A program made the translations under genes and the position numbers. The notes under the pieces are model-generated. The model did not search any database. It had not been told where the DNA came from and saw nothing but the letters and a program-made list of their open reading frames with translations. Shown piece by piece: positions 31,697 to 63,963 of a DNA stretch of 64,000 nt. Position 1 is the first letter of the stretch; every line of letters starts with the position of its first letter. The stretch is from Nitrospirota bacterium (lineage in GTDB: Bacteria; Nitrospirota; Thermodesulfovibrionia; UBA6902), in assembly GCA_016234115.1 (NCBI GenBank), contig JACRHD010000060.1, positions 41,135 to 105,134 of the forward strand. Reading direction: 5' to 3'.

Positions 31697-32680
31697 TCAT
31701 AACGGGTTAGACGGCGGCTTTGTCGATAAGCCCAGGTGTTGTTTAATGATCCATCGGGGCCGCTGTTTGACTTCATCATAGATTCTTCCGAGATACTGCC
31801 CTATAATCCCCAAAAAGATCAGTTGAACTCCTCCGAGGAAAAGGATCGTGACGTGGGTTGAAAATCCGGGCTTGAGCCCTATCCCCAAAGATTCGAAAAA
31901 GTCCCTGAAAATATATTGCAGCACAAGTAAAATAATGCCGAGAAAAGACAAAGCTGAAGTCCATAAACCGATATTGGTAGCCATTGACAGTGGAAGAGTT
32001 GAAAAAGATATTATGCCGTCCAGGGCCAGACGGCGCAATCTTTTGAAATCATACTTTGACTCTCCGGCAGTCCTTGCGTGCCTTTCATAGGCGAGGCCTG
32101 TTTGCCTGAACCCGGCCCATGCCCTCAATCCCCGTACAAACCTGTTTCTCTCTGGCATGGTATTTAAGATATCGACTATCTTCCGGTCCATGATACAAAA
32201 GTCACCTGAGTCCAGCGGCAGATCAAAATCTATCATTCTCGACAATAACCGGTAGAACGTCCAGTAGCTGATTTTCTTGAGGATCCCTTCTTTCCGGTGC
32301 TCTCTGACTGCGTACACTATGTCGTAACCATCCAGCCACTTTTTTATAAAACGATGGATTTCTTCCGGCGGGTCCTGCAGGTCAGCGTCAATAACAATGA
32401 CCGCGTCCCCTGTCGCATGAAATATGCCGGCTGAAACCGCCGTCTGATGTCCGAAGTTGCGGGAAAAAGAAAGTGCGGACCATCTCGGGTCATTCGCGTG
32501 CTGGGTGCTCAGCAGCGCCCAGGTGTTGTCATGAGAACCGTCGTCGATGCAAATAATTTCCCAATCAACCCCCCAGCCTTCAGCCGCGTCCGTCATTCTC
32601 CGGAAAAGCTCAGGAAGCACATCCTGTTCATTATAACAGGGGATAACAACAGATATTTTATACTTTTCTCTTCCGTTCAT
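31697..32680 (-). CDS. GT2 polyprenyl-phosphate glycosyltransferase (GtrB/ArnC/DPM1-type, C-terminal 2 TM)
   Basis: 'VVIPCYNE', 'IICIDDGSHDNT', 'DADLQDPPE', and a C-terminal hydrophobic pair of helices. Confidence 0.8.
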   Translation of the reverse strand: MNGREKYKISVVIPCYNEQDVLPELFRRMTDAAEGWGVDWEIICIDDGSHDNTWALLSTQHANDPRWSALSFSRNFGHQTAVSAGIFHATGDAVIVIDADLQDPPEEIHRFIKKWLDGYDIVYAVREHRKEGILKKISYWTFYRLLSRMIDFDLPLDSGDFCIMDRKIVDILNTMPERNRFVRGLRAWAGFRQTGLAYERHARTAGESKYDFKRLRRLALDGIISFSTLPLSMATNIGLWTSALSFLGIILLVLQYIFRDFFESLGIGLKPGFSTHVTILFLGGVQLIFLGIIGQYLGRIYDEVKQRPRWIIKQHLGLSTKPPSNPL

Positions 32681-32717
32681 TCTGAAATCAATCTGTCAAA
32701 CAGACGATGCCGTCATT

Positions 32718-33419
32718 CTACACTTTTTTTCGGGAATAAATCTTGATAGGTGTATCCGGATTTTCATAATGCGAATAAACAACAGAGAAATTCTTTTTTG
32801 TTATAATGCCTTCGTTTTGAGGACCAAAATAAATTATGATACAATCAATAAGTTTGAGTTCGTCGAATTTATTCAACAGAATTTCCAGCATTTCATCCTT
32901 AAACGGCGCATACAGAAAAAATATCAGTGAATTCGTTTTCCGGTCCCTGCTGAAATCAGTTATTAAGTTCGGGAAATCGACATCTCTGACATTTTGATTA
33001 ACAATTTTCATTTTGGCATGAGGCGGTAAATATTTTTTGAGGTTTTGACTGCACAGCTCCGCGAGTTTATTGGATTGCTCAATCCCTATTAACCGGTTGA
33101 AGCCGATGGAGAACGAATAATACAGGGCCCTGCCCGGACCACATCCGATGTCAAAAAAGATTGAATCCTGAAAATCGGTTACTATATTTTTCAGTTGATT
33201 CAGGGACTTGGTAAGGATAAAATACGGGGCGGGCACGTAAGGATCGGAGAGCCTGCTGTCTTCATCACTGATATCCAGTTCCTGAGGCTCAACGACAAAA
33301 AAATATTTAAACCCGGGATGTCTTATCAAAAAAAACAGTTCATAAACGGATCCGATGATTAATGGTTTTAATCCCCAATCATTTTTTGTCTTGATGACCT
33401 GTTTTATTATTGAAATCAA
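32718..33419 (-). CDS. class I SAM-dependent methyltransferase
   Basis: 'FFDIGCGPGRALYY' is motif I. The segment is markedly AT-rich. Confidence 0.6.
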   Translation of the reverse strand: MISIIKQVIKTKNDWGLKPLIIGSVYELFFLIRHPGFKYFFVVEPQELDISDEDSRLSDPYVPAPYFILTKSLNQLKNIVTDFQDSIFFDIGCGPGRALYYSFSIGFNRLIGIEQSNKLAELCSQNLKKYLPPHAKMKIVNQNVRDVDFPNLITDFSRDRKTNSLIFFLYAPFKDEMLEILLNKFDELKLIDCIIIYFGPQNEGIITKKNFSVVYSHYENPDTPIKIYSRKKV

Positions 33420-33568
33420 AGTATGATTGATGATGACAAGAAATCGCTTCTCAAGCTATAGTGAATTATAGCAGAAAAATCCGGACACTTGTCAATATTT
33501 CATTAATTTTCTCAATTAATTGCGATTGTATTTTATAGCTCGGGCTTTGTATAATTACAACATCATTC

Positions 33569-35158
33569 ATGAAACCATATAAGACGTATTTTGAAGATAA
33601 ATATGAAATATGCATATATGGCCTACTGTTCATATCAGCCCTCGCGGCCGCCCTCCTTGCAGTAAAAAATATAAGAATATCTCCTGACTCGATGATATAT
33701 GCGCTGATTTCACAGGAGATACGGTCCGGCAATGGAATAACACTGCCGATAATTTATGATCTGAACGACAATTACGCCTTTATCGACGGGGCGGTCCCGT
33801 ATCTCGCTCAGCCCCCCCTTCTGCCGATGCTTTTCGCCTTATTGGGCGGGGTCACACCGCAAAATTTCCTGGCCGCACAGATAATTAATGTGATCAGTCA
33901 TGTGGCTACTGCGTTTTTCAGTTTTCTCTTAATGAAAAAATTATACGATAATAAGGCCGTTGCCCTGCTGACCGGGATACTCGTCTCCGTTTCCCTTCCT
34001 CTGGTGTCTAATGCCCACTCCATGTTGAGTGAATCGTTATTTGTCGCATTAACGACTGCGGCGTTATATTTTATAGTCTTGACGCGACATTCCGGCGGTC
34101 ATCAGTCAATCCGATATTATTTCATTGCGAGTATCTGCGCCGGCGCCGCTATTTCAACAAGGTTTGCCGGAGTGGCCCTGATACCAGTATTTTTGTGGGA
34201 AGTCTTTGTCCTGGTAAGGAACAAAAGCATAAAGTCAAAAGGCGCGGCCGCCGTCTTATCGGCAATGCTGCCTCTGATTGCCATCGGAGCGCTTTTCATT
34301 CGTAACTACTTTGTGTCGGGCACAATAGTAGGCTGGAACCCATATGCTTCCGAGAGGCCTTATACCGAAGCCCTTACAGGCACTTTGAAGATGCTATTTC
34401 TGCAATTTCAATTAGGAGGACATCTTGTTGCGCCGTTCATGGCGGCATCTGTTTTATTTATTCTGTATATTGTCGCGACTACTGATGGAAGAAAAAAAAT
34501 GACAGAGTGCGTTCATTCAGGACTGGACCTGCTTGTAGTTTTCATGCTGAGCTATACGGCGCTGATTACTCATGCACTGGCCAGGGTGCAGCCGCTTTTT
34601 GAAGTGCGATATATTTCTCCTTTGGCGCCTTTCTTATTTATAATTTGTATTCTTGTCATCGTTGTTTTATGGGACGTGATAAGATTTAAAGGGTTCTCCA
34701 AACTATCATTATTCGGAATGATATTGTCTCTCGGCATAATAATATTCGGTAATCTTTATAAGACGTGCTTGAATGCGGAGCCGTTATTTTCCCGTCAGAC
34801 CGGGCATTACCGGATACTGAATTCCCCTACGTACAACTGGATTAAACAGAATTATGATGAAGACGTCGTCATTACGACCAACAGACCGTTTCATCTCAGC
34901 TTTTTCGGGGGATATCCGACGGTAAGATTATCGCACAGGAGATTTAACAGGAATGATTATCTTCCTGATAACATGGAATCATTTCTGCCGGCCCGAATGT
35001 CCAGATTCGGATCGCGGGTGCTTGTCTTGTTTGAAGAAGTAGATGAGCAGAATGAAGGAAGTTATCTTACGGGACTGTTCAATAAGAGAGAAGGCGACGA
35101 CCGCTTTGTATTAATGCAAAAATTACCTGACGGGGTCATATATAATCTCAAGGAATAA
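33569..35158 (+). CDS. GT-C fold membrane glycosyltransferase (ArnT/PMT-like)
   Basis: 529 aa. The N-terminal polytopic region has many TM helices. A periplasmic C-terminal domain follows. The family call comes from topology and context. Confidence 0.5.
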   Translation: MKPYKTYFEDKYEICIYGLLFISALAAALLAVKNIRISPDSMIYALISQEIRSGNGITLPIIYDLNDNYAFIDGAVPYLAQPPLLPMLFALLGGVTPQNFLAAQIINVISHVATAFFSFLLMKKLYDNKAVALLTGILVSVSLPLVSNAHSMLSESLFVALTTAALYFIVLTRHSGGHQSIRYYFIASICAGAAISTRFAGVALIPVFLWEVFVLVRNKSIKSKGAAAVLSAMLPLIAIGALFIRNYFVSGTIVGWNPYASERPYTEALTGTLKMLFLQFQLGGHLVAPFMAASVLFILYIVATTDGRKKMTECVHSGLDLLVVFMLSYTALITHALARVQPLFEVRYISPLAPFLFIICILVIVVLWDVIRFKGFSKLSLFGMILSLGIIIFGNLYKTCLNAEPLFSRQTGHYRILNSPTYNWIKQNYDEDVVITTNRPFHLSFFGGYPTVRLSHRRFNRNDYLPDNMESFLPARMSRFGSRVLVLFEEVDEQNEGSYLTGLFNKREGDDRFVLMQKLPDGVIYNLKE

Positions 35159-35340: not shown

Positions 35341-36402
35341 ATGAAAGATTTCTACAAAGGCAAAAACATATTATTGACAGGCGCCGCAGGCACTGTAGGA
35401 AGAGAACTCGTAAGACAACTTATCGCTTTTGGGCCTTCCGAGCTCCGTTTGATGGACAACAATGAAACAGAGATGTTCTTTCTTATGGAAGAATACAGAA
35501 ATGACCATGTGTTCTGTTTTCTCGGCGATATAAGAGACAGGGACAAGCTGGAAAAATTGTCAAAGGACGTGGATATAATCATTCACTCCGCGGCCTTCAA
35601 ACATGTTTATCTGTCCGAATATAATCCATTCGACGTAGTGCAGACAAATATAATCGGAGTTGAAAATATTATAAGAGCGGCGACCTCGGGCAATGTGAAA
35701 CTTCTCCTGTTTACAAGCAGCGACAAAGCTGTAAATCCTACTAATGTTATGGGCACCTCCAAACTTATGGGTGAAAGGCTGATAACCGCCGCGTCCGCCG
35801 TGCGAAATAACAGCAATACCATTTTCAGCAGCACCAGGTTCGGCAATGTTCTCGGGTCAAGAGGTTCCGTAGTTCCTTTATTCATGAAACAGATCAGAAA
35901 AGGCGGTCCCGTGACCATTACGGACAAGAGAATGACCAGATTTGTCATGACCATAGAAGAAGCCGCAAGATTGGTGCTGCAATCAGTCCTGATCGCAAAA
36001 GGGGGTGAAGTTTTCATTACAAAAATGCCGGTCGTAAGAATACCCGACCTTGCCGAAGCAATGATAAAGCTGCTTGCGCCAAAGTATGGTTATAAACCTG
36101 CGGACATTAAAACCGTTGAAATCGGGATGAAGGCCGGTGAAAAGTTATATGAGGAGCTGATGAGCGATCAGGAGGTCCCGCGCTCCATGGAATTAAAAGA
36201 TATGTTTGTGGTGACCCCGGCTTTCAAGGCGCTTTTTCAGTCAATAAAACATGAATATCCCGACACCGTTTCCAATAAAATAGAGAGGTCTTATATATCG
36301 GAGAATGAAACACCATTGAATGTATATGAGATTGAAAAATATCTTATTGAAAACAGGGTGATCGAGAAAGTTGAAGAATTTTCCTACGGCAGCAGTGTTT
36401 GA
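35341..36402 (+). CDS. polysaccharide biosynthesis protein CapD/PseB-like (UDP-GlcNAc 4,6-dehydratase-type SDR)
   Basis: 'KNILLTGAAGTVGREL' plus a characteristic CapD/FlaA1 core ('FTSSDKAVNPTNVMGTSKLMGERL'). Confidence 0.75.
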   Translation: MKDFYKGKNILLTGAAGTVGRELVRQLIAFGPSELRLMDNNETEMFFLMEEYRNDHVFCFLGDIRDRDKLEKLSKDVDIIIHSAAFKHVYLSEYNPFDVVQTNIIGVENIIRAATSGNVKLLLFTSSDKAVNPTNVMGTSKLMGERLITAASAVRNNSNTIFSSTRFGNVLGSRGSVVPLFMKQIRKGGPVTITDKRMTRFVMTIEEAARLVLQSVLIAKGGEVFITKMPVVRIPDLAEAMIKLLAPKYGYKPADIKTVEIGMKAGEKLYEELMSDQEVPRSMELKDMFVVTPAFKALFQSIKHEYPDTVSNKIERSYISENETPLNVYEIEKYLIENRVIEKVEEFSYGSSV

Positions 36403-36518
36403 GTATTTTTATCCGGCCGCGGACGAACGTTCTGCCGGCCTGCATGCAGGCGCCTTCGTCGGCTTATTAGTGGGGAAATAATAATTTATCATCATCAGGT
36501 CAATAACGGAGGTGCTGC

Positions 36519-37667
36519 TTGAAAATTCTGATCTTGGGCGCTGACGGTTATTTAGGCTGGCCCAGTTGTTTATATTTTTCCCGGAGAGACCACGAAGTTA
36601 CCGGAGTTGATAACTACTTCCGCCGCAACGCCGCAACGGAACTCGACTGTGAATCCCTAATACCCGCGCCCAATCTTCTTCAAAGGGCGAATATATGGAA
36701 AGAAGTCACGGGCAGAAGCATCAAAGTGCATATAGGGGACATTACCAATTACGAGTTTCTCCTGTCCTTATTCAGAGAATACAATCCTGACGCGGTCATT
36801 CACTATGCGGAACAGCCTTCCGCTCCTTATTCCATGATGAGCCGGGACAAGGCCGCTTTTACTGTGCAGAACAATCTTATCAGCACTCTTAACATAATGT
36901 ACGCGGTAAAAGAGGTCAATCCGGAATGTCACATCATTAAGCTCGGGACCATGGGAGAATACGGCACGCCGAATATCGATATTGAAGAGGGTTGGCTGGA
37001 AATAGAGCATAACAGCCGCAAAGACAGGTTTCTGTTTCCAAGACAGGCAGGTTCGTTGTATCACACGACAAAGGTCCAGGACACGGACATGATCTGGTTT
37101 TACGTCAGGACATGGGGCCTCGGAGTGACGGACCTGATGCAGGGGCCCGTGTACGGACTTTCCACCGAAGAGACGGACCTCGACCCCCGGCTGACGCCGA
37201 GCTTCCACTACGATGAAATATTCGGGACTGTTTTAAACAGATTCATAGTCCAGGCTGTTGCGGGATATCCCCTTACGGTCTTCGGAAAAGGCAACCAGAC
37301 AAGGGGATTTTTGAACTTAAGAGACACCATGCAGTGCGTTTATTTGTCCGCCTCACGGCCTGCCGCCCGTGGACAGCTCAGGGTCTTCAACCAGTTGACG
37401 GAACAATTTTCAGTTAATCAGCTTGCGGAGAAAGTAAAAATAGTCGGGGACAGGCTTGGTTATAATGTTGTGATCAAGCATATTAATAATCCGAGAGTCG
37501 AGAAAGAAGACCATTACTACAATGTAAAATATACGGGACTCTTTGACCTGGGACTGAAACCTCATTATCTGACGGATGAAATCCTTGAAAGCTTTTTCGC
37601 AGTTACGGACACATATAAGGACCTTATCAACAGGGACGCTTTCTTCAGAGGCGTAAGTTGGAAATAA
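36519..37667 (+). CDS. UDP-sulfoquinovose synthase (SQD1/SqdB-like)
   Basis: 'KLGTMGEYGTPNIDIEEG', 'EQPSAPYSM' and 'YHTTKVQDTDMIWF' closely match the SQD1 signature blocks as I recall them from memory. The N-terminus is GADGYLGWP. Confidence 0.7.
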   Translation: MKILILGADGYLGWPSCLYFSRRDHEVTGVDNYFRRNAATELDCESLIPAPNLLQRANIWKEVTGRSIKVHIGDITNYEFLLSLFREYNPDAVIHYAEQPSAPYSMMSRDKAAFTVQNNLISTLNIMYAVKEVNPECHIIKLGTMGEYGTPNIDIEEGWLEIEHNSRKDRFLFPRQAGSLYHTTKVQDTDMIWFYVRTWGLGVTDLMQGPVYGLSTEETDLDPRLTPSFHYDEIFGTVLNRFIVQAVAGYPLTVFGKGNQTRGFLNLRDTMQCVYLSASRPAARGQLRVFNQLTEQFSVNQLAEKVKIVGDRLGYNVVIKHINNPRVEKEDHYYNVKYTGLFDLGLKPHYLTDEILESFFAVTDTYKDLINRDAFFRGVSWK

Positions 37668-37752
37668 CACTTCTTACTGAATAATTTCGATATGGAACCA
37701 ATAATGAAGCCCCGCTGTATTTTTTTGCCGGGCTTGCCGCATGGGCCGTTAA

Positions 37753-38061
37753 ATGATAAATAACGAAAATATCTTACAGGCCGTTATAGAGACTATCGAT
37801 GAATTAAACGGGCAACTGCCGAAAGAGCAACGATTGGAGAAGTCTGCCGACACGGCCCTTTTCGGCAATGAGGGGCCGCTGGATTCTTTAGGTTTAGTCA
37901 GCCTGATTACGACGTTGGAACAAAAAATCGAAGAGAAGTCAGGGAAGCCGGTAACCATACTTGAGGAATTGGAAGCCCTTGAAAATGAAAATCCCTTTGA
38001 AACGGTCAGGACCCTGGTCGCATATGTCGCTTCCTCTTTAGAGCAAAGGGGACATGAATAA
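37753..38061 (+). CDS. acyl carrier protein
   Basis: 'GPLDSLGLVSLITTLE' is the phosphopantetheine-attachment DSL motif. Its stop overlaps the FkbH-like start. Confidence 0.65.
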   Translation: MINNENILQAVIETIDELNGQLPKEQRLEKSADTALFGNEGPLDSLGLVSLITTLEQKIEEKSGKPVTILEELEALENENPFETVRTLVAYVASSLEQRGHE

Positions 38062-39751
38062 ACAAAAGGTCAGGTGCGTATTAATATCCGATTTCAACCT
38101 GGATATTTTTTCCGGATATTTAAGCAATGATGAAGAGCTTCCTGCCGTCGCTGCCGTCGCCGCTCCCTTCGGCCAGGTAACACAGCTCCTGGTGCAGGAA
38201 GACCCGGAGTACTGGAACGGCAATACCGACTTTGCTTTTATCTGGACCAGACCGGAAGGAGTCATTAAGTCCTTTAATGACCTTCTCGCTTACAACCCGC
38301 ATTCAATAGCGGACATCCTTGATGAAGTCGATCAATTCGCCTCTCTATTGCTGAAGCTTTGCGACAGGGTAAGGTTCGTATTTGTTCCCGCCTGGATTAA
38401 GTCCTTCAACAGGGGGTCCGGCCTGCTTGACATGAAAAAGGACGTCGGCATTGCGAATATTTTAATGCAAATGAACTTGAGACTGTGTGAAATATTCGAG
38501 CAAAGATCCAATATTTACCTGCTTGACTCACAAAACTGGGTAAACGCCGCAGGCAAGTACGCCTTCAATCCGAGGTTATGGTACAGGGGGAAGATCGCCT
38601 TTGGAAACGACGTTTACAAGGCTGCGGTAAGGGACATAAAATCCGCCATAAGGGGCCTGGAAGGACTTTCAAAAAAGGTCCTTGTTCTTGATCTGGACAA
38701 TACCTTGTGGGGTGGGGTTGTCGGCGACCTCGGATGGGAGGGCATTGTATTGGGCGGACATGATCCGATAGGTGAAGCGTTTGCGGACTTTCAGCGCGCT
38801 TTAAAAGCATTGTCGAATCGGGGCGTCCTGCTGGCAATAGTAAGCAAGAATGAAGAACCTGTCGCGCTGGAGGCAATAAATAAACATCCTGAAATGGTCC
38901 TGAGATTGAAAGACTTCGCCGGATGGAGGATCAACTGGCTGGACAAGGCCTCCAATATTGCAGACCTGATCGCGGACCTGAACCTTGGTCTCCAGTCAGT
39001 GGTCTTTATCGATGACAATCCAATGGAACGGGCAAGGGTCAGAGAGACCCTGTCCGAGGTGCTTGTCCCTGAATGGCCCGAAGACATTATGCTGTACACA
39101 AGTACGCTCCTCGGTCTGCGCTGTTTTGACAGTCCTTCACTGAGTAAGGAAGACACTGAAAGAACAAAGATGTATATTTCGGAGAAACAGCGAAAGGAGC
39201 TCAGGAAAAGTCTCGGCTCTTTTGATGAATGGCTGGGCAGCCTGGAGACCAGGACCAGCGTGGAAGAATTGAACAGGGTCAATCTTCAAAGGACTGCGCA
39301 GTTGTTAAACAAGACCAGTCAAATGAACCTCTCAACAAGAAGGCTGTCCGAACGGGAGCTTGCCGACTGGGCGGATGAAGACTACCGGAAACTCTGGACT
39401 TTTCGCGTATCGGACAAACTGGGAGATTCAGGTCTTACCGGCATTATCAGTCTTGAAGTAATAAACAAAACAGGGCGAATCGTGGATTTCGTTCTGAGTT
39501 GCAGGGTCATAGGCCGCAAGGTTGAAGAAGCGATGCTCTTTACCGTTATTGACTACGCGCGCGGCCTGGGTTTAGATGAGCTTGTAGCGGAATTTTTGCC
39601 GACGCAAAAAAACAAACCCTGCCTGGACTTCTGGAAAAGATCAGGTTTTGATTTTGATGTCCGGAGAAATTCCTTTACGTGGGACGTGGAAAGAGATTTT
39701 CAAATGCCGGAACACATTGAAATCCTGACGACTGAACACGTTGACGAGTAA
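38054..39751 (+). CDS. FkbH-like HAD-IIIC protein (glyceryl-S-ACP synthase family)
   Basis: 'VLVLDLDNTLWGGVVGDLGWEGIVLGG...AIVSKNEE' is the HAD-IIIC core. A C-terminal acyltransferase-like domain follows. 565 aa. Confidence 0.8.
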   Translation: MNKQKVRCVLISDFNLDIFSGYLSNDEELPAVAAVAAPFGQVTQLLVQEDPEYWNGNTDFAFIWTRPEGVIKSFNDLLAYNPHSIADILDEVDQFASLLLKLCDRVRFVFVPAWIKSFNRGSGLLDMKKDVGIANILMQMNLRLCEIFEQRSNIYLLDSQNWVNAAGKYAFNPRLWYRGKIAFGNDVYKAAVRDIKSAIRGLEGLSKKVLVLDLDNTLWGGVVGDLGWEGIVLGGHDPIGEAFADFQRALKALSNRGVLLAIVSKNEEPVALEAINKHPEMVLRLKDFAGWRINWLDKASNIADLIADLNLGLQSVVFIDDNPMERARVRETLSEVLVPEWPEDIMLYTSTLLGLRCFDSPSLSKEDTERTKMYISEKQRKELRKSLGSFDEWLGSLETRTSVEELNRVNLQRTAQLLNKTSQMNLSTRRLSERELADWADEDYRKLWTFRVSDKLGDSGLTGIISLEVINKTGRIVDFVLSCRVIGRKVEEAMLFTVIDYARGLGLDELVAEFLPTQKNKPCLDFWKRSGFDFDVRRNSFTWDVERDFQMPEHIEILTTEHVDE

Positions 39752-39843
39752 GCGAGACCGGGCATGGTCTATATCATGCCCTGCAGAGGAACGATGCCTA
39801 TACTGTTGAAAAAAGTTATACTATCTTTCTGGAACAAGCACAC

Positions 39844-41265: not shown

Positions 41266-41287
41266 CACTTGATACAATGGACCTAAA

Positions 41288-42364: not shown

Positions 42365-42515
42365 GGACCGTCAAATCGGGAAGATGATCAGGATGGAATG
42401 ATTTTATGTTAGTATGTCGGATGAAACTGGCTGAATGTCCGGATCCATTTGCATAGATCGATGTCGCTGTCGCATATTTAATTTATTGGTAATTATAACT
42501 CTTAAATAAATTTAA

Positions 42516-48137: not shown

Positions 48138-48164
48138 ATCACGTATAGCTAAGTCCTATTTCAT

Positions 48165-50484: not shown

Positions 50485-50656
50485 AGTTGTAGCATCCTTT
50501 TTACTGTTTTAGTGTGTGTAATATTTTAATATATACATTGTTTTTAAAGCAAAGTTTCATATTACCTGTGTCATATTACCTGTAATATGATTACACTCTG
50601 AAAAAAACATGAGATTGATCGACATGCCGGCATTTGATCAATAAACATGTCCCGGT

Positions 50657-52381: not shown

Positions 52382-52469
52382 ATTATTTCTCCTTCATCCG
52401 TCCAGTCTTATATTAGCACATTATTTTTTAACGTATCAAAAACCGGCAAAGGCATCGACCTTGGGCCGG

Positions 52470-53668: not shown

Positions 53669-53677
53669 TAACTTTAC

Positions 53678-55204: not shown

Positions 55205-55211
55205 ATTGCGT

Positions 55212-56429: not shown

Positions 56430-57446
56430 TCAATAGTCCCAGTAGTGGCTGCCGTACTTCCTGTAATATTCCAGAGAAGCGGCCAGTCCGTCTTCAATTG
56501 ATGTCCCGGGCTCCCATCCCAGCAGCGACCGGATTTTTCCGTAGTCTCCGTAATAATCCCCTATATCTATCTGCTTCCGTTCAGGCGGGAAAGGAACAAT
56601 GGAATACGACCCGGCCTTGTTGATTTTTATCAGCAGGGCCGCCAGGTCCTTCAGATTAATATGGTCATTGCAACCCGTATTGAAAATCTGACCATACGCT
56701 TCCTCTCTTATCGCCGACATCAAAAAGGCATCTACGATGTCCTCTACAAAATTAAAGTCGCGTAATTGTCTTCCATCGCCGAACACCTTGATTTCTTCCC
56801 CGGAGATAAGCTGCTTTATCCAGATACCCAGAAAAGTCTGTCTGGCGTCCTTCACGCGCATGCGCGGACCATAGGTGTTGGTCAAACGCAGTGAACAGGA
56901 CCTGATCCCATAAACATTATTGTAAAGGATGTGATACCATTCCCCGGCCATTTTGTTTATACCGTTGACGTCCGTAGGATGAAGCAAATGACGCTCGTCA
57001 ACAGGCAGGTAATCGGGCACTCCATACATTTGCCGGGTGCTGGCAAAGACAATTTTTATGGAAGGATTATAGTGGCGGCATGTCTCTAATATGGACAACT
57101 GCGCCCGGCAATTGATCTCCAGGTCCGTGTAAGGATCGACCATCGAGTCGGCATGGGCCGTCTGTCCCGCTAAATTGAACAGATAGTCTTTCCCCTTTAT
57201 AAGATATCGCATGCTGTATATGTCCCTTACATCGGCTATATTTACTTCAACCTCTTTTTCAATGTCCCTGATATTAAATAAATTGCCCCCGTATTCCGGA
57301 ATAAGCGAATCCACTAATAAAACCTGGGCGCCGTACTCAACCAGGCGGTGGGCCAGGTTTGAACCTATAAAACCCAGTCCGCCGGTAATAATGACCTTCT
57401 TGTTCCTGAATTTCTCAAGTCCCGTTGCTTTATTCATGAGCCTCAT
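56430..57446 (-). CDS. NAD-dependent epimerase/dehydratase (UDP-glucuronate decarboxylase / ArnA C-terminal-domain-like)
   Basis: 'VIITGGLGFIGSNL' and the 'YxxxK' motif mark an extended SDR. It is embedded in Arn-like gene context. Confidence 0.75.
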   Translation of the reverse strand: MRLMNKATGLEKFRNKKVIITGGLGFIGSNLAHRLVEYGAQVLLVDSLIPEYGGNLFNIRDIEKEVEVNIADVRDIYSMRYLIKGKDYLFNLAGQTAHADSMVDPYTDLEINCRAQLSILETCRHYNPSIKIVFASTRQMYGVPDYLPVDERHLLHPTDVNGINKMAGEWYHILYNNVYGIRSCSLRLTNTYGPRMRVKDARQTFLGIWIKQLISGEEIKVFGDGRQLRDFNFVEDIVDAFLMSAIREEAYGQIFNTGCNDHINLKDLAALLIKINKAGSYSIVPFPPERKQIDIGDYYGDYGKIRSLLGWEPGTSIEDGLAASLEYYRKYGSHYWDY

Positions 57447-58380
57447 ATGCTTTTCTGATCGTATATTGGGGCTTTTTATTGAGAGACAGAAAAATCCTTC
57501 CGATATATTCTCCGACCATTCCGAGCATTACCAACTGTATTCCGCCGAAAATGGAGATTGAAACAAAGAGGCTCGCGAAACCTACCGGGATATCGGGACT
57601 CAGGAGTTTTTCAATAGCAGTATAAATGCCCAACAGCAATCCGACGGAAGCAAATATAAGACCCAGGAAAATGGAAATCCTCAACGGCAGGACGGAAAAA
57701 TTTGTAAACATATTCAGCCACAGCGAAACCAGTTTTTTGATCGTATAGCCTGAGCGCCCCTCCCGCCGCTCGCCATGCTCCACCCTCACCGTCCCGATCT
57801 TGTCGGTAGTCTGTAATACTAATCCGTCTATGTACGGAAAGGGGGCCTGATACTTGATGATTTCCCTTACGAGGAATTTATTCAGGACCTTGAAACTCGA
57901 AAGGTACAGACCGGCCGGTTTATGCAGCATAAGGCCCGCGACCTTGTTATGAAACCAGCTCCCCCAGTTCCTGAACAGCGAATGTTTCTTCTTGTCATAA
58001 TATGAGTAAACCACGTCATACTCGCCGTCTAACGCCTTATCGACAAGTTTAACGACCTCGCTTATCGGGTTCTGAAAATCATCATCCATGATGACGACAT
58101 AGTCCCCCGTGACCTTATTTAATCCGGCCATCACCCCATTATGTTCTCCGACGTTTTTTGATAATGAATAAAACCGTACTGTCTCTCTGTATTTTTCAAA
58201 CAGGGCGACGCACGCCTCTTCCGAACGGTCGGCCGAATTGTCGTTTACGAGCACAACTTCGAGCTTGTAAAGAGGCCCCAAATCCCTGATAAGTCCTTCA
58301 ACCAGGCTCCCGATAGTATTTTCAGAGTTGTAGACCGGAATTAAAATGGATAATGCAATTGAGGGGTCTTTTTTGTTCAT
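57430..58380 (-). CDS. GT2 polyprenyl-phosphate amino-sugar transferase (ArnC-like)
   Basis: 'LSILIPVYNSE', 'VVLVNDNSADRS' and 'DDDFQNP' are GT2 motifs. Two C-terminal TM helices are present. 316 aa. Confidence 0.8.
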   Translation of the reverse strand: MNKKDPSIALSILIPVYNSENTIGSLVEGLIRDLGPLYKLEVVLVNDNSADRSEEACVALFEKYRETVRFYSLSKNVGEHNGVMAGLNKVTGDYVVIMDDDFQNPISEVVKLVDKALDGEYDVVYSYYDKKKHSLFRNWGSWFHNKVAGLMLHKPAGLYLSSFKVLNKFLVREIIKYQAPFPYIDGLVLQTTDKIGTVRVEHGERREGRSGYTIKKLVSLWLNMFTNFSVLPLRISIFLGLIFASVGLLLGIYTAIEKLLSPDIPVGFASLFVSISIFGGIQLVMLGMVGEYIGRIFLSLNKKPQYTIRKAYEAHE

Positions 58381-58802: not shown

Positions 58803-60251
58803 ATGCCCCGAGCACTGACAAGCCTGAACGCCAAAGAGGTGAAATTCCTTCGGTCCGCCCTGACCGAGGAAAACGCCTTCATGACGACCCGTGATTGTCT
58901 TCAGTGGCTTGAGCATCGGAGAAAGCAGACCCATGTTCAAATTGAGCAGATACCGTTTGCCAAATTGCGTAAATGGTATTTTGATAAAGATACCGGTAAC
59001 TTACGCCATGAAAGCGGGCGTTTCTTTTCCATTGAAGGAGCTCATGTAAAGACGAACTATGGTTTTGTGTCTGAATGGTCGCAGCCTATTATAAATCAGC
59101 CTGAAATAGGCATTCTTGGAATTATTACCAGAGAGATCAACGGCATCCTTTATTTCCTCATGCAGGCAAAGATCGAGCCGGGGAATATAAATTACGTCCA
59201 GCTTTCTCCGACACTGCAGGCCACAAAAAGCAACTATACCAAAATACATAAAGGGGCGTCCCCCGAATATCTCGAATATTTCACGGACAGCTCAAAGAGC
59301 AGGGTCCTTTCAGACCAGTTACAATCCGAACAGGGCGCCAGGTTCCTGAAAAAGAGGAACAGGAACATCATAGTCGAGATCGACGATAATATACTTTTAA
59401 AAGATAACTTCTGCTGGCTGACCCTTGGACAGATCATCAGATTGATGGAATACGATAATGTGGTAAACATGGACACCCGGACAGTGATCTCCGGAATTCA
59501 GTTCGGCTCCCTCTGCCCGGAGCAGATAGAGCTGTACATTAAAAGCGACTTTCACCGAAAGGAACATACCATGTTTCAGCCGGATATTTTGACGTCGATG
59601 TTTGATAATACAAGTGCCCGGAACACCATAGACGACATTATATCCTGGATAACGGGACTGAAAACAAGATATGAATTGAACGTGGAAAATGTCCCCCTGA
59701 ACAGCGTCCGGGAATGGCAGAAAGACGATTATGCGATCCACCACAAGACAAAAAACTTTTTTTCAGTCATCGCAGTTCTGGTAGAAATAGAAAACCGCGA
59801 AGTCGCTTCATGGACACAGCCGCTAATCAGGGCCGCGCAGGAAGGTATAATATCGTTCCTCATGAAGAAATTCAGCGGGGTATCTCATTTCCTTGTTCAG
59901 GCCAAACTGGAGGCAGGCAATTTCGACATCCTCGAAATGGCCCCGACGGTCCAGTGCATTACCGGCAATTACCGTAATGCCCCTTCCGATAAGCGCCCTC
60001 CCTTTCTGGATTATGTGTTAAATGCGAGAGAAGATCAAATAAAGTATTCAACTTATCAATCCGAGGAAGGCGGCAGGTTTTACCGTGAACAAAACAGGAA
60101 TCTTATCATTGAAGTCGATGATTCCTTTCCGGCGGCCGTTCCCGACAATTATATCTGGATGACATTGAACCAGTTAAAGCAGTTTATCAAGTATAATAAT
60201 TACCTGAATATTCAGGCGCGCACGCTGCTGTCTGCGATTGGTCTCAAGTAA
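58803..60251 (+). CDS. NDP-hexose 2,3-dehydratase (EvaA/TylX3 family, tandem Nudix-like halves)
   Basis: Two homologous halves ('ILGIITREINGILYFLMQAKIEPGN' and 'ISFLMKKFSGVSHFLVQAKLEAGNF'). About 480 aa. Confidence 0.8.
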   Translation: MPRALTSLNAKEVKFLRSALTEENAFMTTRDCLQWLEHRRKQTHVQIEQIPFAKLRKWYFDKDTGNLRHESGRFFSIEGAHVKTNYGFVSEWSQPIINQPEIGILGIITREINGILYFLMQAKIEPGNINYVQLSPTLQATKSNYTKIHKGASPEYLEYFTDSSKSRVLSDQLQSEQGARFLKKRNRNIIVEIDDNILLKDNFCWLTLGQIIRLMEYDNVVNMDTRTVISGIQFGSLCPEQIELYIKSDFHRKEHTMFQPDILTSMFDNTSARNTIDDIISWITGLKTRYELNVENVPLNSVREWQKDDYAIHHKTKNFFSVIAVLVEIENREVASWTQPLIRAAQEGIISFLMKKFSGVSHFLVQAKLEAGNFDILEMAPTVQCITGNYRNAPSDKRPPFLDYVLNAREDQIKYSTYQSEEGGRFYREQNRNLIIEVDDSFPAAVPDNYIWMTLNQLKQFIKYNNYLNIQARTLLSAIGLK

Positions 60252-60260
60252 CACAACAAG

Positions 60261-61235
60261 TTGATGAAAAAAATAAATATCGGCGTCATCGGATGCGCAA
60301 ACGTAGCTGAAAGATGCATGCTGCCGGCCATAAAGGCGGCGAATGAATTTGAATTGATTGCCGTCGCCAGTCGTAACAGGGAAAAAGCCGCAAACCTTGC
60401 CGCAAAATTCTCATGTGAGGCAATCGAGGGTTACGCGGACATATTGAACAGGGACGATATCGACGCCGTATATGTGCCGTTGCCCACCGGATTGCATGAA
60501 GAATGGCTCATAAAAGCGCTTAGGAAAGGCAAGCACGTGCTGTCCGAGAAATCTCTGACAACGGATTACGCGTCGGCAAAAAAAGTAATCGACGAGGCCG
60601 AAATCAGGCAGTTACTGGTAATGGAGGATTTCATGTTTCCGTATCATCGCCAGCATGCCTTTGTCAAAAAGCTGCTCCTGGACGGCGAAATCGGAGATGT
60701 GTACTTCTTTAAAAGCTCCTTTGGGTTTCCTCCGAGGGGCAAGGATGATATCCGTTATGACAGGAAACTGGGCGGCGGCGCGCTTTTGGACGCAGGCGCT
60801 TATGTCGTAAAGGCGACCCAGATGTTTCTCGGACGAGATCTCACACTGCTCGGCGCCTTCCTGAAATACGACGGACGACTTGACGTGGACATTTACGGCG
60901 GGGCGATGTTTACGAACAATAAGGACCAAATCTCCCACGTCAGCTTCAGTTTTGATAATTATTACCAGTGCAGCTATGAAATATGGGGGAGCAAGGGCAA
61001 GATAACAGCGGACAGGGCATTTACCCCCCCGCCGAATTTCGCCCCGACAATCGTGCTGGAAAAACAGGACCACAGGCAGGAATTCGTCATAGCGCCGGAC
61101 AATCACTTCGTTAACATCCTGAAAGAATTTCACAGGGCGATACGGGAGAACGATTTCCGCCGCCACTGGGATGAAGCATTAACGCAGGCAAAATTACTCG
61201 ATCAGATAAGGGAGAACCATGCAAGATCAGATTAG
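60261..61235 (+). CDS. Gfo/Idh/MocA-family oxidoreductase (NDP-hexose 3-ketoreductase-like)
   Basis: 'INIGVIGCANVAERCMLPAI' is a Rossmann N-terminus. Its position after the 2,3-dehydratase is typical of a 3-ketoreductase. Confidence 0.7.
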   Translation: MMKKINIGVIGCANVAERCMLPAIKAANEFELIAVASRNREKAANLAAKFSCEAIEGYADILNRDDIDAVYVPLPTGLHEEWLIKALRKGKHVLSEKSLTTDYASAKKVIDEAEIRQLLVMEDFMFPYHRQHAFVKKLLLDGEIGDVYFFKSSFGFPPRGKDDIRYDRKLGGGALLDAGAYVVKATQMFLGRDLTLLGAFLKYDGRLDVDIYGGAMFTNNKDQISHVSFSFDNYYQCSYEIWGSKGKITADRAFTPPPNFAPTIVLEKQDHRQEFVIAPDNHFVNILKEFHRAIRENDFRRHWDEALTQAKLLDQIRENHARSD

Positions 61236-62322
61236 GAAACCGATATATGTTACGCAGCCGTCGCTGCCCCCCCTGGACGAATATACGCGTATCCTTGAAG
61301 GTGTCTGGGAAAGAGGCATACTGACTCATAACGGTCCAATGGTCCAGCTCCTGGAAAAAGAACTTATCGACTATCTACATGTGCCGAACCTCGTTGCTGT
61401 TACAAACGGGACCATTGCAATACAATTAGCCATTCGCGCCCTGAATTTAGAGGGAGAAATAATTACGACCCCGTTTACCTGGATAGCCACGGCCAGCGCG
61501 ATCATGTGGGAAAAATGCAGGCCTGTTTTTGCGGACGTTCAGCCGGACACATTTAACATAGACCCTCAGAGGATCGAAGAGAAGATCACCGACAGGACGT
61601 CCGCGATAATACCCGTTCATGTATTCAGCAATCCCTGTGACGTGGAGGCCATACAAAAAATCGCCGATAAGCACAATTTGAAGGTCATATACGACGCCGC
61701 CCATGCCATGTGCGTCGACTACAACGGGAAATCCCTGCTTGAATACGGGGACATTACTGCGACCAGTTTTCATGCCACCAAGATTTTTCAGTCAGGCGAA
61801 GGGGGCGCCTGTATTACAAAAGACAGGGAATTATTCGAGCGTCTCCGGAGACTCCGCTTTTTCGGTCACGACGAGAAGAAGGACATTGTCGACGAGGGGC
61901 TGAACGGAAAAATGACGGAGGTCCATGCCGCCCTTGGACTGGCAAGCCTGAAGTGGCTGGACAAGGTTTTGCATGACAGAAGAGAAAAATATGAATTATA
62001 CATGTCCCTTTTGGAGAACTGCGGCTTCATCGAATTTCAGAATTTTCCGCCGGATTCATATAACTACAGCTATATGCCTGTTCTGCTGGAAAACGAAGAG
62101 CAGTTACTTGCGCTTACGGAGCATTTGAACGGACACAACATTTATCCAAGGAGATATTTTCATCCTTCCTTAAATACTGTTGATGTCGTCTCATCAAAGG
62201 AGCATTTTCCGGTCGCGGAGGACCTGGCATCGAGGATATTGTGCCTGCCTCTGTTTTATACTCTGAAGAAGACGGACATTGAATATATTTGCGGTTTAAT
62301 CATCAACTGCCGGCGCCGATAA
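61219..62322 (+). CDS. DegT-family PLP sugar aminotransferase (C-3 aminotransferase-like)
   Basis: 'VAVTNGTIAIQLAIRAL', 'FHATKIF' and 'GEGGA' mark fold type I. Confidence 0.85.
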   Translation: MQDQIRKPIYVTQPSLPPLDEYTRILEGVWERGILTHNGPMVQLLEKELIDYLHVPNLVAVTNGTIAIQLAIRALNLEGEIITTPFTWIATASAIMWEKCRPVFADVQPDTFNIDPQRIEEKITDRTSAIIPVHVFSNPCDVEAIQKIADKHNLKVIYDAAHAMCVDYNGKSLLEYGDITATSFHATKIFQSGEGGACITKDRELFERLRRLRFFGHDEKKDIVDEGLNGKMTEVHAALGLASLKWLDKVLHDRREKYELYMSLLENCGFIEFQNFPPDSYNYSYMPVLLENEEQLLALTEHLNGHNIYPRRYFHPSLNTVDVVSSKEHFPVAEDLASRILCLPLFYTLKKTDIEYICGLIINCRRR

Positions 62323-62333
62323 AATAAGGAGCC

Positions 62334-62894
62334 TTGATTTTGAATAAATATGGCATTCCATACGTACGAATTTTTGAGCCTGCGGTCATCATTAATATCG
62401 AAAACATAGAGTTCGGCAAGTACGTCATGATCGACAGTTTCGTCCTTATCCAGGCCAAAAGGAAGATTAAAATAGGGGACCATGTTCATATCCCCTCTTT
62501 TTCATCAATCACGGGAGGCGGCAAGCTTGTAATGGAGGATTATTCCGGTTTGTCCTCAGGGGTAAGGATATTTACGGGGAGCGATGACTTTAAAGATTGG
62601 GGGTTCGGTAACCCGACTATAGATGAAAGGTTCAGGAATGTCAAAATCGGCGAGGTGATCATCAGGAAATTTGCTATCGTCGGGGCCAACAGTGTGGTGC
62701 TCCCGGATGTTGAAATCGGGGAAGGGGCTGCTGTCGGCGCGGGCTCTGTGGTGACTAAAAACCTGGAGCCGTGGGGGATATATATCGGGAACAGGAAAAT
62801 CGGAGAGCGTAACAGGAAAGACGTGCTGAAGAACTTTGAAAACTTTCTGACGACCAGCGAACCGGAAAGGACAGGGCCATTTTTCAGACAATAA
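62334..62894 (+). CDS. left-handed beta-helix (hexapeptide-repeat) sugar N-acetyltransferase
   Basis: Hexapeptide repeats 'IGDHVHI...VRIFTG...VKIGEVIIRKFAIVGANSVVLPDVEIGEGAAVGAGSVV'. Probable TTG start (62334 or 62340) after aaggag. Confidence 0.65.
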   Translation: MILNKYGIPYVRIFEPAVIINIENIEFGKYVMIDSFVLIQAKRKIKIGDHVHIPSFSSITGGGKLVMEDYSGLSSGVRIFTGSDDFKDWGFGNPTIDERFRNVKIGEVIIRKFAIVGANSVVLPDVEIGEGAAVGAGSVVTKNLEPWGIYIGNRKIGERNRKDVLKNFENFLTTSEPERTGPFFRQ

Positions 62895-62966
62895 GCAATT
62901 TATTTTCCGGATCATCGTGGAAAAGCGCGGGTAAAAACCCCTGAATTTGGATATGATTAATTGTAT

Positions 62967-62995
62967 CCCCCCTTTTTCAAAGGGGGAGACGGCAC
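62967..62995. repeat. element-B fragment (cccccctttttcaaagggggagacggcac)
   Basis: Shares the palindrome with the B copies at 7386, 16761 and 53633. Confidence 0.6.
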
Positions 62996-63024
62996 AGGTT
63001 ATACAATGATTTGAGCATCGCAAC

Positions 63025-63963
63025 ATGAACGACATAGATTATTCAATAATAATTCCTGTTTATTACAATGAAGGTTCAATAGAAAAGACTTTCAATATTT
63101 TACATGAGAAAGTGATTTCGATAAATAAAGGGTTGAACTGCGAATTGATATTCATCGACGACGGGTCAAGAGATAATTCGTTTAATGAAATATCGGGACT
63201 GAAGGAAAAATATCCGGACTTGATAAGGGTGATCAAGTTTACGCGTAATTTCGGCCAGGTAGCGGCAATTTATGCCGGATATCAATATGCCAGGGGCAAA
63301 TGCCTGATCAATATTTCGGCCGATTTACAGGACCCGCCGGAGCTTATTAATGAAATGATCGACTGCCATTTAAAGGACAAATATGAAATTGTCATTTGCA
63401 CCCGTGAAGCGAGAGAAGACTCCTATTTTCAGAGAAAGACCTCCGGCATTTTTTACAAGCTGATAAGAAAACTCTCCTTTCCCGATATGCCGTCGGGCGG
63501 CTTTGATTTTGTATTGATAAGCGACAAGGTGAAAGACATCATATTGGAGAAAAGAGAAGCAAACCCTTTCTGGCAGGGACACCTGCTGTGGACGGGCCAT
63601 CGGACCAGATTTATTCCATATAAAAGAAGCGAAAGAGAAATCGGAACATCCAGATGGACCTTTTCAAAAAAGATCAAATACCTGATAGACGGCGTAACGA
63701 GCTACTCCTATTTCCCCCTGAGACTGATGTCCGTGGTCGGCGGCCTGGTGGCGTTAGTGGGTTTTCTGTACGCCGTCTTCATAATATTCGCACGAATCTT
63801 CGGCGACGTCGTTCCGTTCGGCTGGGCGCCGATAATGGTAGTTGTGCTGCTTCTTTCCGGCATTCAAATGTTGATGCTGGGGATCGTGGGGGAATACCTC
63901 TGGCGGGTATTGGACCAGGTCAGAAACAGGCAGCCGTATATTATTGAGAACATCTGGTATTGA
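63025..63963 (+). CDS. GT2 polyprenyl-phosphate glycosyltransferase (GtrB/ArnC-type, C-terminal 2 TM)
   Basis: 'IIIPVYYNE', 'LIFIDDGSRDNS' and 'ADLQDPPE' are GT2 motifs. C-terminal hydrophobic helices are present. Confidence 0.8.
   Translation: MNDIDYSIIIPVYYNEGSIEKTFNILHEKVISINKGLNCELIFIDDGSRDNSFNEISGLKEKYPDLIRVIKFTRNFGQVAAIYAGYQYARGKCLINISADLQDPPELINEMIDCHLKDKYEIVICTREAREDSYFQRKTSGIFYKLIRKLSFPDMPSGGFDFVLISDKVKDIILEKREANPFWQGHLLWTGHRTRFIPYKRSEREIGTSRWTFSKKIKYLIDGVTSYSYFPLRLMSVVGGLVALVGFLYAVFIIFARIFGDVVPFGWAPIMVVVLLLSGIQMLMLGIVGEYLWRVLDQVRNRQPYIIENIWY

Follow-up and report, generated by a model that had tools for sequence, protein, structure and literature searches.

Why would one bacterial chromosome keep, side by side, several enzymes that may each load a sugar onto a lipid carrier and several unrelated membrane proteins that may transfer those sugars onward? 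This question is raised by a stretch of 64,000 nt from an uncultured Nitrospirota bacterium (contig JACRHD010000060.1, positions 41,135 to 105,134); we call this whole stretch the window. A preliminary description, made from the sequence alone, proposed that the window encodes at least four donor synthases of the GtrB/ArnC type (family GT2) and at least three GT-C-type transferases, working as parallel three-component systems for periplasmic glycosylation. All seven open reading frames (ORFs) that it named are present where it placed them. We compared their products, and those of the surrounding genes, to protein families, to structures, and to related loci that we fetched and labelled L (L001, L083, etc.).

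We consider it likely that the part of the window from about 26.7 kb onward is a chromosomal locus for envelope glycans, one that uses sugar donors linked to lipid monophosphates. On the cytoplasmic face, five enzymes (31697, 57430, 63025, 48165, and 46716) would each load one sugar onto polyprenyl phosphate, with 46716 making polyprenyl-phosphate-ribofuranose from phosphoribosyl pyrophosphate (PRPP). Neighboring genes would offer four further routes: to a 4-amino sugar, with possible ArnD-like de-N-acylation and carbamoylation; to a 2-deoxy acetamido sugar, through a 2,3-dehydratase; from an alcohol to an amine, by a GMC oxidoreductase and an omega-transaminase; and to acylation by an acyl carrier protein (ACP), FkbH, and GNAT, with a sulfoquinovose-synthase-like branch. 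The donors would be flipped by flippases that are encoded outside of 26–64 kb, and three unrelated GT-C proteins (33569, 44006, and 53678) would pass the sugars on to acceptors in the periplasm. Just past the end of the window, a fourth GT-C is probably encoded. The most likely pairings of donor synthase and transferase are 31697 with 33569, 57430 with 53678, and 46716 with 44006. Families, folds, gene order, and conservation among relatives are observed; which sugars are made, which enzymes pair, which way the sugars flow, and what accepts them are inferred.

The candidate donor synthases and transferases are as follows.

31697..32680, minus strand: donor synthase 1, a GT2 of the GtrB/ArnC/PgfS type with a two-helix anchor (DAD motif at VIDADLQDP; 79% identical in L083)
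46716..48137, minus strand: donor synthase 2, a HAD phosphatase fused to a UbiA-type polyprenyl-phosphate phosphoribosyltransferase
48165..48893, minus strand: donor synthase 3 (candidate), a short GT2 resembling Dpm1/PpgS (from PDB, NCBIfam, and orthologs)
57430..58380, minus strand: donor synthase 4, a GT2 of the ArnC/GtrB type with a two-helix anchor, the first gene of the core operon
63025..63963, plus strand: donor synthase 5, a GT2 of the GtrB/PgfS type with a two-helix anchor (78% identical in L012)
33569..35158, plus strand: GT-C transferase 1, PMT_2 / GT39-GT83-like, the first gene of a plus-strand operon (from Pfam)
44006..46654, minus strand: GT-C transferase 2, a YfhO-family membrane domain with a C-terminal CBM32/F-lectin-like module
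53678..55204, minus strand: GT-C transferase 3, 508 amino acids from Met16 of the ORF that starts at 55249 (from AlphaFold and Foldseek)

Predicted donor synthases and GT-C transferases

The three GT2s with anchors (31697, 57430, and 63025) match Pfam's Glycos_transf_2 with E values of 1e-25 to 1e-33 and align over their full length to the NCBIfam models for ArnC and PgfS. They contain DAD, DDD, and ADLQD as DXD motifs, and each has two hydrophobic segments at about residues 235–295, which form the C-terminal two-helix anchor. The product of 57430 aligns end to end with solved structures of ArnC (9hwj, 9bhc, 8vxh) and GtrB (5ekp), with E around 1e-36 to 1e-38: residues 8–310 align to ArnC 8–312, and residues 5–309 align to GtrB. 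The fourth GT2 (48165..48893) has 242 amino acids and no hydrophobic segments, so it lacks the anchor of the GtrB/ArnC type, as had been described. Its best matches in PDB are the catalytic region of ArnC (E = 1e-11) and the dolichol-phosphate-mannose synthase of Pyrococcus, and it has weak NCBIfam matches to dolichol-phosphate hexose transferase and PpgS. Because its orthologs have 232–236 amino acids and are 86–89% identical, we think that it is a genuine short form and not a truncation. If all four GT2s are considered, E values for Glycos_transf_2 range from 1e-21 to 1e-33, and the motifs are DAD, DDD, ADLQD, and DGD. These similarities support placing the GT2s in the polyprenyl-phosphate glycosyltransferase family (ArnC/GtrB/PgfS), with a predicted role in transferring sugars to a lipid carrier. 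Nor are they redundant paralogs, a possibility that had been raised: the anchored GT2s are 25–33% identical to each other, and the anchorless GT2 is 20–36% identical over partial alignments.

The preliminary count of at least four donor synthases holds for the GT2s, and it overlooked a fifth candidate at 46716. This protein scores 609.5 bits against the NCBIfam equivalog NF006088 (cut-off 351 bits). Its HAD half has the catalytic motif DLDGT at residues 10–14. Its UbiA half is similar to the decaprenyl-phosphate phosphoribosyltransferase Rv3806c of M. tuberculosis (8j8j; E = 2e-25), with the NDxxDxxxD motif intact (YLFNDFFDLPSD). The same domain architecture is found in ORF15 of Citrobacter youngae, a HAD-UbiA fusion that was shown biochemically to make polyprenyl-phosphate-ribofuranose from PRPP and that works with a MATE flippase (ORF14) and a GT-C bearing a carbohydrate-binding module (CBM) at its C-terminus (ORF12, GT136) (PMC11127046). 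We predict from these similarities that 46716 also forms polyprenyl-phosphate-ribofuranose. With this fusion, the locus has five candidate synthases of lipid-linked sugars, not four. The fusion is directly upstream of the YfhO-like GT-C (44006) in the window, and the two genes are also adjacent in L005 and L006, so they are paired in three of the seven distinct loci that we examined. We infer that GT-C 44006 pairs best with the phosphoribosyltransferase 46716, rather than with a GT2.

Neither BLAST nor profile-profile comparison reveals any similarity among the three GT-C proteins, so they are distinct lineages and not duplicates. Plain sequence searches of these polytopic proteins against PDB gave only chance-level matches. 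The product of 33569 (529 amino acids) matches PMT_2 (36.8 bits, with a gathering score of 26.1) and PMT (26.7 bits), both above their cut-offs. It is 100% identical to MBI5741709.1, which is annotated as a glycosyltransferase family 39 protein in a metagenome-assembled genome of Nitrospirota, where its contig is 142 kb long. The product of 53678 has no significant match in Pfam, and some of its homologs carry PF13231. Its AlphaFold model (pLDDT 91, pTM 0.92) was compared to PDB with Foldseek, and the top 31 matches are all GT-C proteins, including ALG9 as well as STT3, DPY19, ArnT, AglB, PglB, and AftA (E = 1e-7 to 4e-4 and TM scores of 0.5–0.58 for the last six). D31-E32, just after the first transmembrane segment (TM1), is nearly invariant in this 508-aa family. 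Although STT3 is the top match, we rejected the idea that 53678 is an oligosaccharyltransferase (OST), as it has no WWD motif.

For 44006, the match to YfhO (PF09586) scores 33.6 bits, above the gathering score of 28.5, and covers only positions 739–835 of the 835 in the profile, at its C-terminal end; 46 of 49 homologs of 44006 also have this match. Its best full-length structure matches are AftD, EmbA/B/C, and ArnT, with probabilities of 0.96–1.0 and TM scores of only 0.2–0.27. D47 is nearly invariant in this family. The C-terminus is a CBM32/F-lectin-type domain, which favors a glycan acceptor for this enzyme. Together these data support the assignment of all three proteins to the GT-C type, by PMT_2 for 33569, by fold for 53678, and, less strongly, by structure matches for 44006.

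Tailoring genes and predicted sugars

Part of the locus had been described as an Arn-like set. The genes downstream of donor synthase 4, besides GT-C 53678, are as follows.

56430-57446, minus strand: atypical extended short-chain dehydrogenase/reductase (SDR), whose best PDB match is a UDP-hexose 4-epimerase
Starts at 55212, minus strand: DegT-family sugar 4-aminotransferase (PseC 276 bits and ArnB 223 bits, both under the equivalog cut-offs)
Starts at 52470, minus strand: CE4 polysaccharide deacetylase of the ArnD family type (66% identical in L001 and L002)
Starts at 50657, minus strand: NodU/CmcH-type carbamoyltransferase (84% identical in L001 and L002)
49027-50484, minus strand: B12-radical SAM protein

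The order GT2-SDR-DegT-GT-C is kept in L001, L002, L003, L005, L007, and L008. At 73–86% identity for the cytoplasmic enzymes and 60–71% for the GT-C, this is the most conserved part of the locus. In L001 and L002, the carbamoyltransferase and the CE4 deacetylase are near the same core operon. We detected no signal peptides in the proteins of 49027..53249; the deacetylase lacks a hydrophobic N-terminus, which fits action at the cytoplasmic face, as for ArnD.

The resemblance to the Arn pathway is at the level of families: ArnB at 223 bits (cut-off 631), ArnC at 153 bits (cut-off 529), a CE4 domain, and a GT-C fold that matches ArnT (E = 4e-6). The SDR scores about 100–106 bits against UXS/RmlB and just 46.9 bits against ArnA (cut-off 777). 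The catalytic tyrosine of YxxxK is replaced by asparagine (VNGINK), and where dehydratases have STDE, the SDR has STRQ(M/I)YG (TRQ instead of TDE); both changes are kept in all five orthologs that we examined. No ORF of 26–64 kb, which is the region that our scans for formyltransferase and flippase domains covered, has a formyltransferase domain. Because there is no formyltransferase, because the SDR has just 47 bits to ArnA, and because asparagine replaces its catalytic tyrosine, 4-amino-4-deoxy-arabinose (Ara4N) is not indicated. Without a formyltransferase, an ArnA-type decarboxylase, or the catalytic tyrosine, this set is not the Arn pathway. The core operon would then make some 4-amino sugar, perhaps a pentose or a 6-deoxyhexose.

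Between GT-C 53678 and the deacetylase, in an otherwise tight minus-strand run, there is a gap of 430 bp (53250-53680) with no convincing ORF. Rfam found nothing in this gap, and a promoter-like site at 53478-53449 was no better than chance.

Donor synthase 1 and GT-C 33569 are flanked by two sets of tailoring genes.

26732..28216, minus strand: GMC-family FAD oxidoreductase (Pfam GMC_oxred_N/C; 71–73% identical and syntenic in L083 and L091)
28257..28613, minus strand: 118-aa protein with one hydrophobic segment (67–68% identical and syntenic in L083 and L091)
28653..30086, minus strand: class-III (omega) aminotransferase (Pfam Aminotran_3, 217 bits; 79–80% identical in L083 and L091)
30277..31626, minus strand: FAD/NAD-binding flavoprotein of the uncharacterised PRK07233 family (NF005560, 445.8 bits, with a cut-off of 252; 77% identical in L083)
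32718..33419, minus strand: AT-rich methyltransferase-like ORF (only sub-threshold matches to Methyltransf_25/11; GC 0.373, and 0.427 at third codon positions, or GC3)
35341..43925, plus strand: tailoring operon after GT-C 1 (from profile matches; shared with relatives), with the next seven genes
Starts at 35341, plus strand: PseB/FnlA-like 4,6-dehydratase
36519-37667, plus strand: UDP-sulfoquinovose-synthase-like SDR (457.5 bits over the full length, with a cut-off of 575; 80–88% identical in L090 and L091)
Starts at 37753, plus strand: ACP-like 102-aa protein with a DSLG motif
Starts at 38054, plus strand: FkbH-like loader
Starts at 39844, plus strand: MaoC dehydratase-SDR fusion
Starts at 41288, plus strand: GNAT, 358 amino acids
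42516-43925, plus strand: B12-radical SAM protein

GT2 31697 and GT-C 33569 are divergently transcribed, and so are their homologs in L083 (79% and 56% identical), which are about 250 bp apart with no methyltransferase gene between them. Next in L083 come homologs of flavoprotein 30277 (77%), class-III aminotransferase 28653 (79%), 118-aa protein 28257 (68%), and GMC oxidoreductase 26732 (71%). The conserved partners of this system are the GMC oxidoreductase, the class-III aminotransferase, the flavoprotein, and the operon downstream of the GT-C; the GMC oxidoreductase and the aminotransferase form a conserved block with the 118-aa protein. The aminotransferase is closest, among NCBIfam models, to PigE and putrescine aminotransferases. 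By analogy, this aminotransferase and the GMC oxidoreductase would fit a route from a primary alcohol to an aldehyde to an amine. The 118-aa protein has no significant match in Pfam or NCBIfam. We considered that it might be a GtrA-type flippase, and we rejected this because it has a single hydrophobic segment and no family match.

Most genes of the plus-strand tailoring operon also follow the GT-C homolog in L090 (55–88% identity), and at least the first two are present in L091 before the contig ends. The similarity of 36519 to UDP-sulfoquinovose synthase hints at a sulfonated or related 6-modified sugar. The genes at 37753-42364 (ACP-like, FkbH, MaoC-SDR, and GNAT) look like a carrier-protein-dependent acylation branch within a glycan operon. 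L090 has a glyoxalase-family gene in place of the MaoC-SDR gene. Beside their 33569-type GT-Cs, L090 (6059-7924) and L091 (7802-9670) encode a short GT2 and UDP-galactopyranose mutase (GLF), and the counterpart in the window is the anchored GtrB-type GT2 with the PRK07233 flavoprotein. Since this cassette differs, the donor module next to this type of GT-C appears to be exchangeable, and the swap raises the possibility that the flavoprotein (30277) is a mutase-like enzyme. Directly after its GtrB-type GT2, L083 encodes an MprF-type protein (LPG_synthase_TM, 174 bits, at 4604-5581); the window lacks a gene of this kind at the equivalent place. This protein is a candidate flippase for the lipid-linked sugar in L083.

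Donor synthase 5 is preceded by a cassette for a deoxy-amino sugar.

58803..62894, plus strand: deoxy-amino-sugar cassette (from profile matches and synteny), with the next four genes
Starts at 58803, plus strand: NDP-hexose 2,3-dehydratase
Starts at 60261, plus strand: GFO/IDH/MocA oxidoreductase
Starts at 61219, plus strand: DesI-like DegT aminotransferase
Starts at 62334, plus strand: hexapeptide acetyltransferase

Synteny of the dehydratase, oxidoreductase, and aminotransferase genes extends to L011 and L012 (72–80% identity) and to L043 and L051 (38–60%). GT2 63025 is conserved with these three genes, at 72–80% in L011 and L012 and more distantly in L043 and L051. We agree with the earlier suggestion that the product would be a lipid-linked acetamido-trideoxyhexose. 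The usual neighbors of GT2 63025 orthologs are an aminotransferase, an acetyltransferase, and a polytopic protein of large size. Directly after the GT2 in L012 are two PMT_2 proteins; a polytopic neighbor matches PMT_2 in L013 as well; and in most other relatives, a large polytopic protein (about 470–810 amino acids, sometimes with TPR repeats) is near the GT2. Because relatives carry such proteins next to or near the GT2, the GT-C partner of 63025 is probably encoded just past position 64000.

It had also been proposed that each GT2 has its own tailoring cassette. Different tailoring genes do flank each donor synthase. However, the methyltransferase is not a conserved cassette, the supposed Arn set is not Arn, and GT-C 44006 adjoins the HAD-UbiA fusion instead of a GT2.

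The two B12-binding radical SAM proteins (42516-43925 and 49027-50484) are paralogs with 31% identity. Each is at the end of a tailoring run, and relatives have further copies. Their best models are BchE, HpnJ, and PhpK, all far under the cut-offs. We considered hopanoid side-chain biosynthesis and rejected it, as the HpnJ-like proteins score about 200 bits, far under the cut-off of 577, and the window encodes no cyclase.

Setting of the locus and rival explanations

The first 20 kb of the window hold ordinary chromosomal genes, such as a cbb3 oxidase cluster, DAHP synthase, biotin synthesis, rubrerythrin, and a flavodiiron protein. The glycan-related region begins after a tRNA-Pro (20357-20433), which is the sole match in an Rfam scan of the window, and extends to the window's end. 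A promoter and terminator scan of the locus did no better than with shuffled sequences, so our operon boundaries are drawn from gene spacing and strand alone. The nearest loci elsewhere are in assemblies from Thermodesulfovibrionia, Nitrospirae, and Omnitrophota; a single-protein scan of a genome collection gave three loci.

Some other features of the surroundings were noticed. The oxidase cluster (20-10097) includes an Rrf2 regulator and is complete (ccoN, a fused ccoO-P, ccoG, FixH-like, DsbD-like, and a P-type ATPase), and the other markers in this genome are those of an anaerobe (rubrerythrin, flavodiiron protein, and BioW). Adjoining the tRNA-Pro, one minus-strand run (20482-26277) encodes a fused E1 alpha-beta (654 amino acids), a lipoyl-E2 (378 amino acids), a DltB-like MBOAT protein (166 bits to TIGR04091), and another protein, of 381 amino acids, that Pfam does not match. 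This run could be an extracytoplasmic O-acylation system that is fed by a 2-oxoacid dehydrogenase, and we did not find it in any of the fetched relatives. Proteins of the Sulfatase/LtaS-EptA type (502–685 amino acids) recur in the versions of the locus in L001, L002, L006, L090, and L091, and there are none in the window.

The preliminary description viewed the locus as a recently acquired, strain-variable, and possibly phase-variable island of independent seroconversion modules. The locus does start next to a tRNA gene, relatives have the modules in differing order, and L090 and L091 carry another donor cassette next to their 33569-type GT-C. Also, the segment at 32700-33600 is AT-rich, as reported: its GC is 0.361, compared with 0.475 on average for the window (z = -3.7), and no other 900 bp of the 64 kb are lower. 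By its composition, the methyltransferase ORF is foreign (its GC3 is 0.427 versus about 0.56 in its neighbors). Since it also has sub-threshold Pfam matches and no homolog in any fetched locus, including L083, it is best read as a local insertion, probably a recent one, and horizontal acquisition is plausible for this gene alone. GC3 for the other genes is 0.48–0.61, near the 0.53–0.71 of housekeeping genes. Most of the modules are present in related assemblies of Nitrospirota and Omnitrophota, at 55–89% identity and in varied arrangements. At least three further assemblies have the three GT-C families on contigs of equal length (82,176, 123,533, and 147,295 bp); direct confirmation comes from the 123,533-bp contig, as L001 and L090 are from the same record. 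Because relatives share the modules and GC3 is near that of housekeeping genes, the clustering is a trait of the lineage, with some rearrangement, rather than an island of recent origin. We found no integrase or transposase in the locus, and phase variation is unsupported, since the window has no simple-sequence repeats and no homopolymer of over 9 nt. A mobile island thus seems very improbable, and for the locus as a whole this explanation is largely refuted.

Two other explanations concern the acceptor. The locus might be a single apparatus for remodelling lipid A or its core, akin to Arn, Lgm/Flm, or the Rgt of Rhizobium, in which several GT-Cs would add charged sugars, whether amino, carbamoylated, or sulfonated, to lipid A or the inner core and tune the charge of the outer membrane constitutively rather than variably. 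Assemblies of Nitrospirota and Omnitrophota keep the core operon with high conservation (75–86% for its cytoplasmic enzymes), as is typical of traits at the core of the envelope; the locus offers an ArnC-like GT2, an ArnB-like aminotransferase, an ArnD-type deacetylase, and a GT-C that matches ArnT (5f15); and relatives have the Sulfatase/LtaS-EptA-type membrane enzymes at their loci. Also, several GT-Cs share one polyprenyl-phosphate donor in the Rgt system. But the region lacks a formyltransferase, there is little similarity to ArnA, genes for lipid A are not adjacent, the lectin-type CBM on 44006 suggests a polysaccharide acceptor, and relatives of PMT_2 and PgfS also glycosylate proteins. 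We view lipid A remodelling as possible, though on the unlikely side. The other explanation is protein O-glycosylation, with GT-Cs of the PMT/PgfM type that would use the lipid-linked monosaccharides to decorate S-layer, pilin, or other envelope proteins. GT-C 33569 matches both PMT and PMT_2 and its public annotation is GT39; the best NCBIfam model for GT2s 31697 and 63025 is PgfS, from a streptococcal protein-glycosylation system; and in the 508-aa family, the D-E pair that follows TM1 is reminiscent of the loop-1 motif of PMT. However, the PgfS scores (203–264 bits) are far under the cut-off of 500 bits, the window has no candidate Ser/Thr-rich acceptor or S-layer gene, and the folds do not discriminate: for 53678, PMT ranks under OST, ArnT, and AftA. 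We doubt this explanation more than the previous one.

Several observations weigh against our own proposal of lipid-monophosphate donors and GT-C transferases. NCBIfam matches to ArnB, ArnC, PgfS, and PseC are all well below the equivalog cut-offs, so the specificities of these enzymes cannot be transferred. No flippase (GtrA, ArnE/F or other SMR, MATE, or MprF-TM type) is encoded in 26–64 kb. There is no MatE match among the window's ORFs and no small multi-helix ORF of the ArnE/F type, as the only small membrane ORF is 28257 (118 amino acids with one segment). With the flippase gene absent, the systems here show two components, rather than the three that were first proposed. Genes for acceptor synthesis (Wzx/Wzy, an ABC transporter, an initiating phosphoglycosyltransferase, or WaaL) are absent from the window. 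The acceptor could be lipid A or its core, another polysaccharide, or protein. A literature search on Thermodesulfovibrio lipid A or ArnT returned nothing relevant. In L001–L003, the YfhO-like gene is directly after the 508-aa GT-C, and there is no HAD-UbiA gene within 10 kb, so the pairing of 46716 and 44006 is not universal. Finally, the SDR that would supply the adjacent aminotransferase with a 4-keto substrate lacks the canonical tyrosine.

Relation to known systems and implications

In the Gtr systems of Shigella and Salmonella phages and in the CsbB/GtcA/YfhO systems of Bacillus and Listeria, an anchored GT2 of the GtrB type makes a polyprenyl-phosphate-sugar and a GT-C transfers the sugar outside of the cytoplasm. 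The likeness to our locus rests on the full-length match to GtrB (5ekp) and on the YfhO-family member. Unlike those systems, the window has no GtrA/GtcA gene, clusters several systems, comes from a diderm Nitrospirota host, has donors that seem to be modified amino or deoxy sugars instead of glucose or N-acetylglucosamine, and adds a CBM32 to its YfhO-like protein. The Arn (PmrHFIJKLM) and Lgm/Flm systems share with it an ArnC-like GT2, an ArnB-like DegT protein, an ArnD-type CE4 deacetylase, and a GT-C with structural similarity to ArnT. They differ in that the window lacks a formyltransferase and ArnE/F, its Tyr-less SDR is not ArnA-like, a carbamoyltransferase is attached, and the scores are far below the equivalog cut-offs.

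In the 6'-amination of aminoglycosides, a GMC-type dehydrogenase acts with a class-III aminotransferase, such as NeoQ/NeoB. The conserved pair of a GMC oxidoreductase and an omega-type class-III aminotransferase would be analogous in logic; unlike NeoQ/NeoB, it is tied to a GT2 of the GtrB type and to a GT-C.

The pentofuranose system of C. youngae O1/O2 (PMC11127046) and the mycobacterial DPPRS with Aft/Emb are the known systems closest to the HAD(PRP)-UbiA(PPPRS) fusion, which keeps the catalytic motifs. The GT-C adjacent to the fusion has a C-terminal beta-rich CBM, and its best structure matches are AftD and Emb. Unlike the C. youngae system, the window has no MATE flippase, and no SDR or DprE1/E2-type epimerase is adjacent. 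GT-C 44006 is YfhO-like by Pfam, and it could also belong to GT136, the family of ORF12.

To our knowledge, nothing is known experimentally about the envelope glycans of Thermodesulfovibrionia-type Nitrospirota or of Omnitrophota. The mechanism itself, with lipid-monophosphate donors and GT-C transferases, is established and is unchanged by our finding. What is new is how densely the systems are clustered, which donor sugars they are predicted to use, how a phosphoribosyltransferase is paired with a GT-C of the YfhO type, and the Tyr-less SDR. The locus predicts that these lineages make unusually heavy use of lipid-monophosphate donors and GT-C transferases. A bolder idea, which we think has only a slim chance of being correct, is that the systems are not independent decorations and that several GT-Cs form a lineage-conserved extracytoplasmic assembly line that builds or heavily elaborates a periplasmic heteroglycan from five polyprenyl-monophosphate donors. 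Ribofuranose would be among these, as would a 2-deoxy acetamido sugar and an amino sugar that is made via the Tyr-less SDR, and one of the GT-Cs would be AftD/Emb-like with a lectin module. If true, Nitrospirota and Omnitrophota would have a diderm counterpart to the arabinan synthesis of mycobacteria.

The locus also offers candidate enzymes: a YfhO-type second partner for the polyprenyl-phosphate-ribofuranose pathway, the periplasmic delivery of a 2-deoxy amino sugar, a tailoring pair that would convert an alcohol to an amine and is tied to GtrB and a GT-C, and a family of extended SDRs in which the catalytic tyrosine is replaced. Such candidates could be of use in glycoengineering and in the annotation of the many GT-C proteins that are listed as "hypothetical" in metagenomes.

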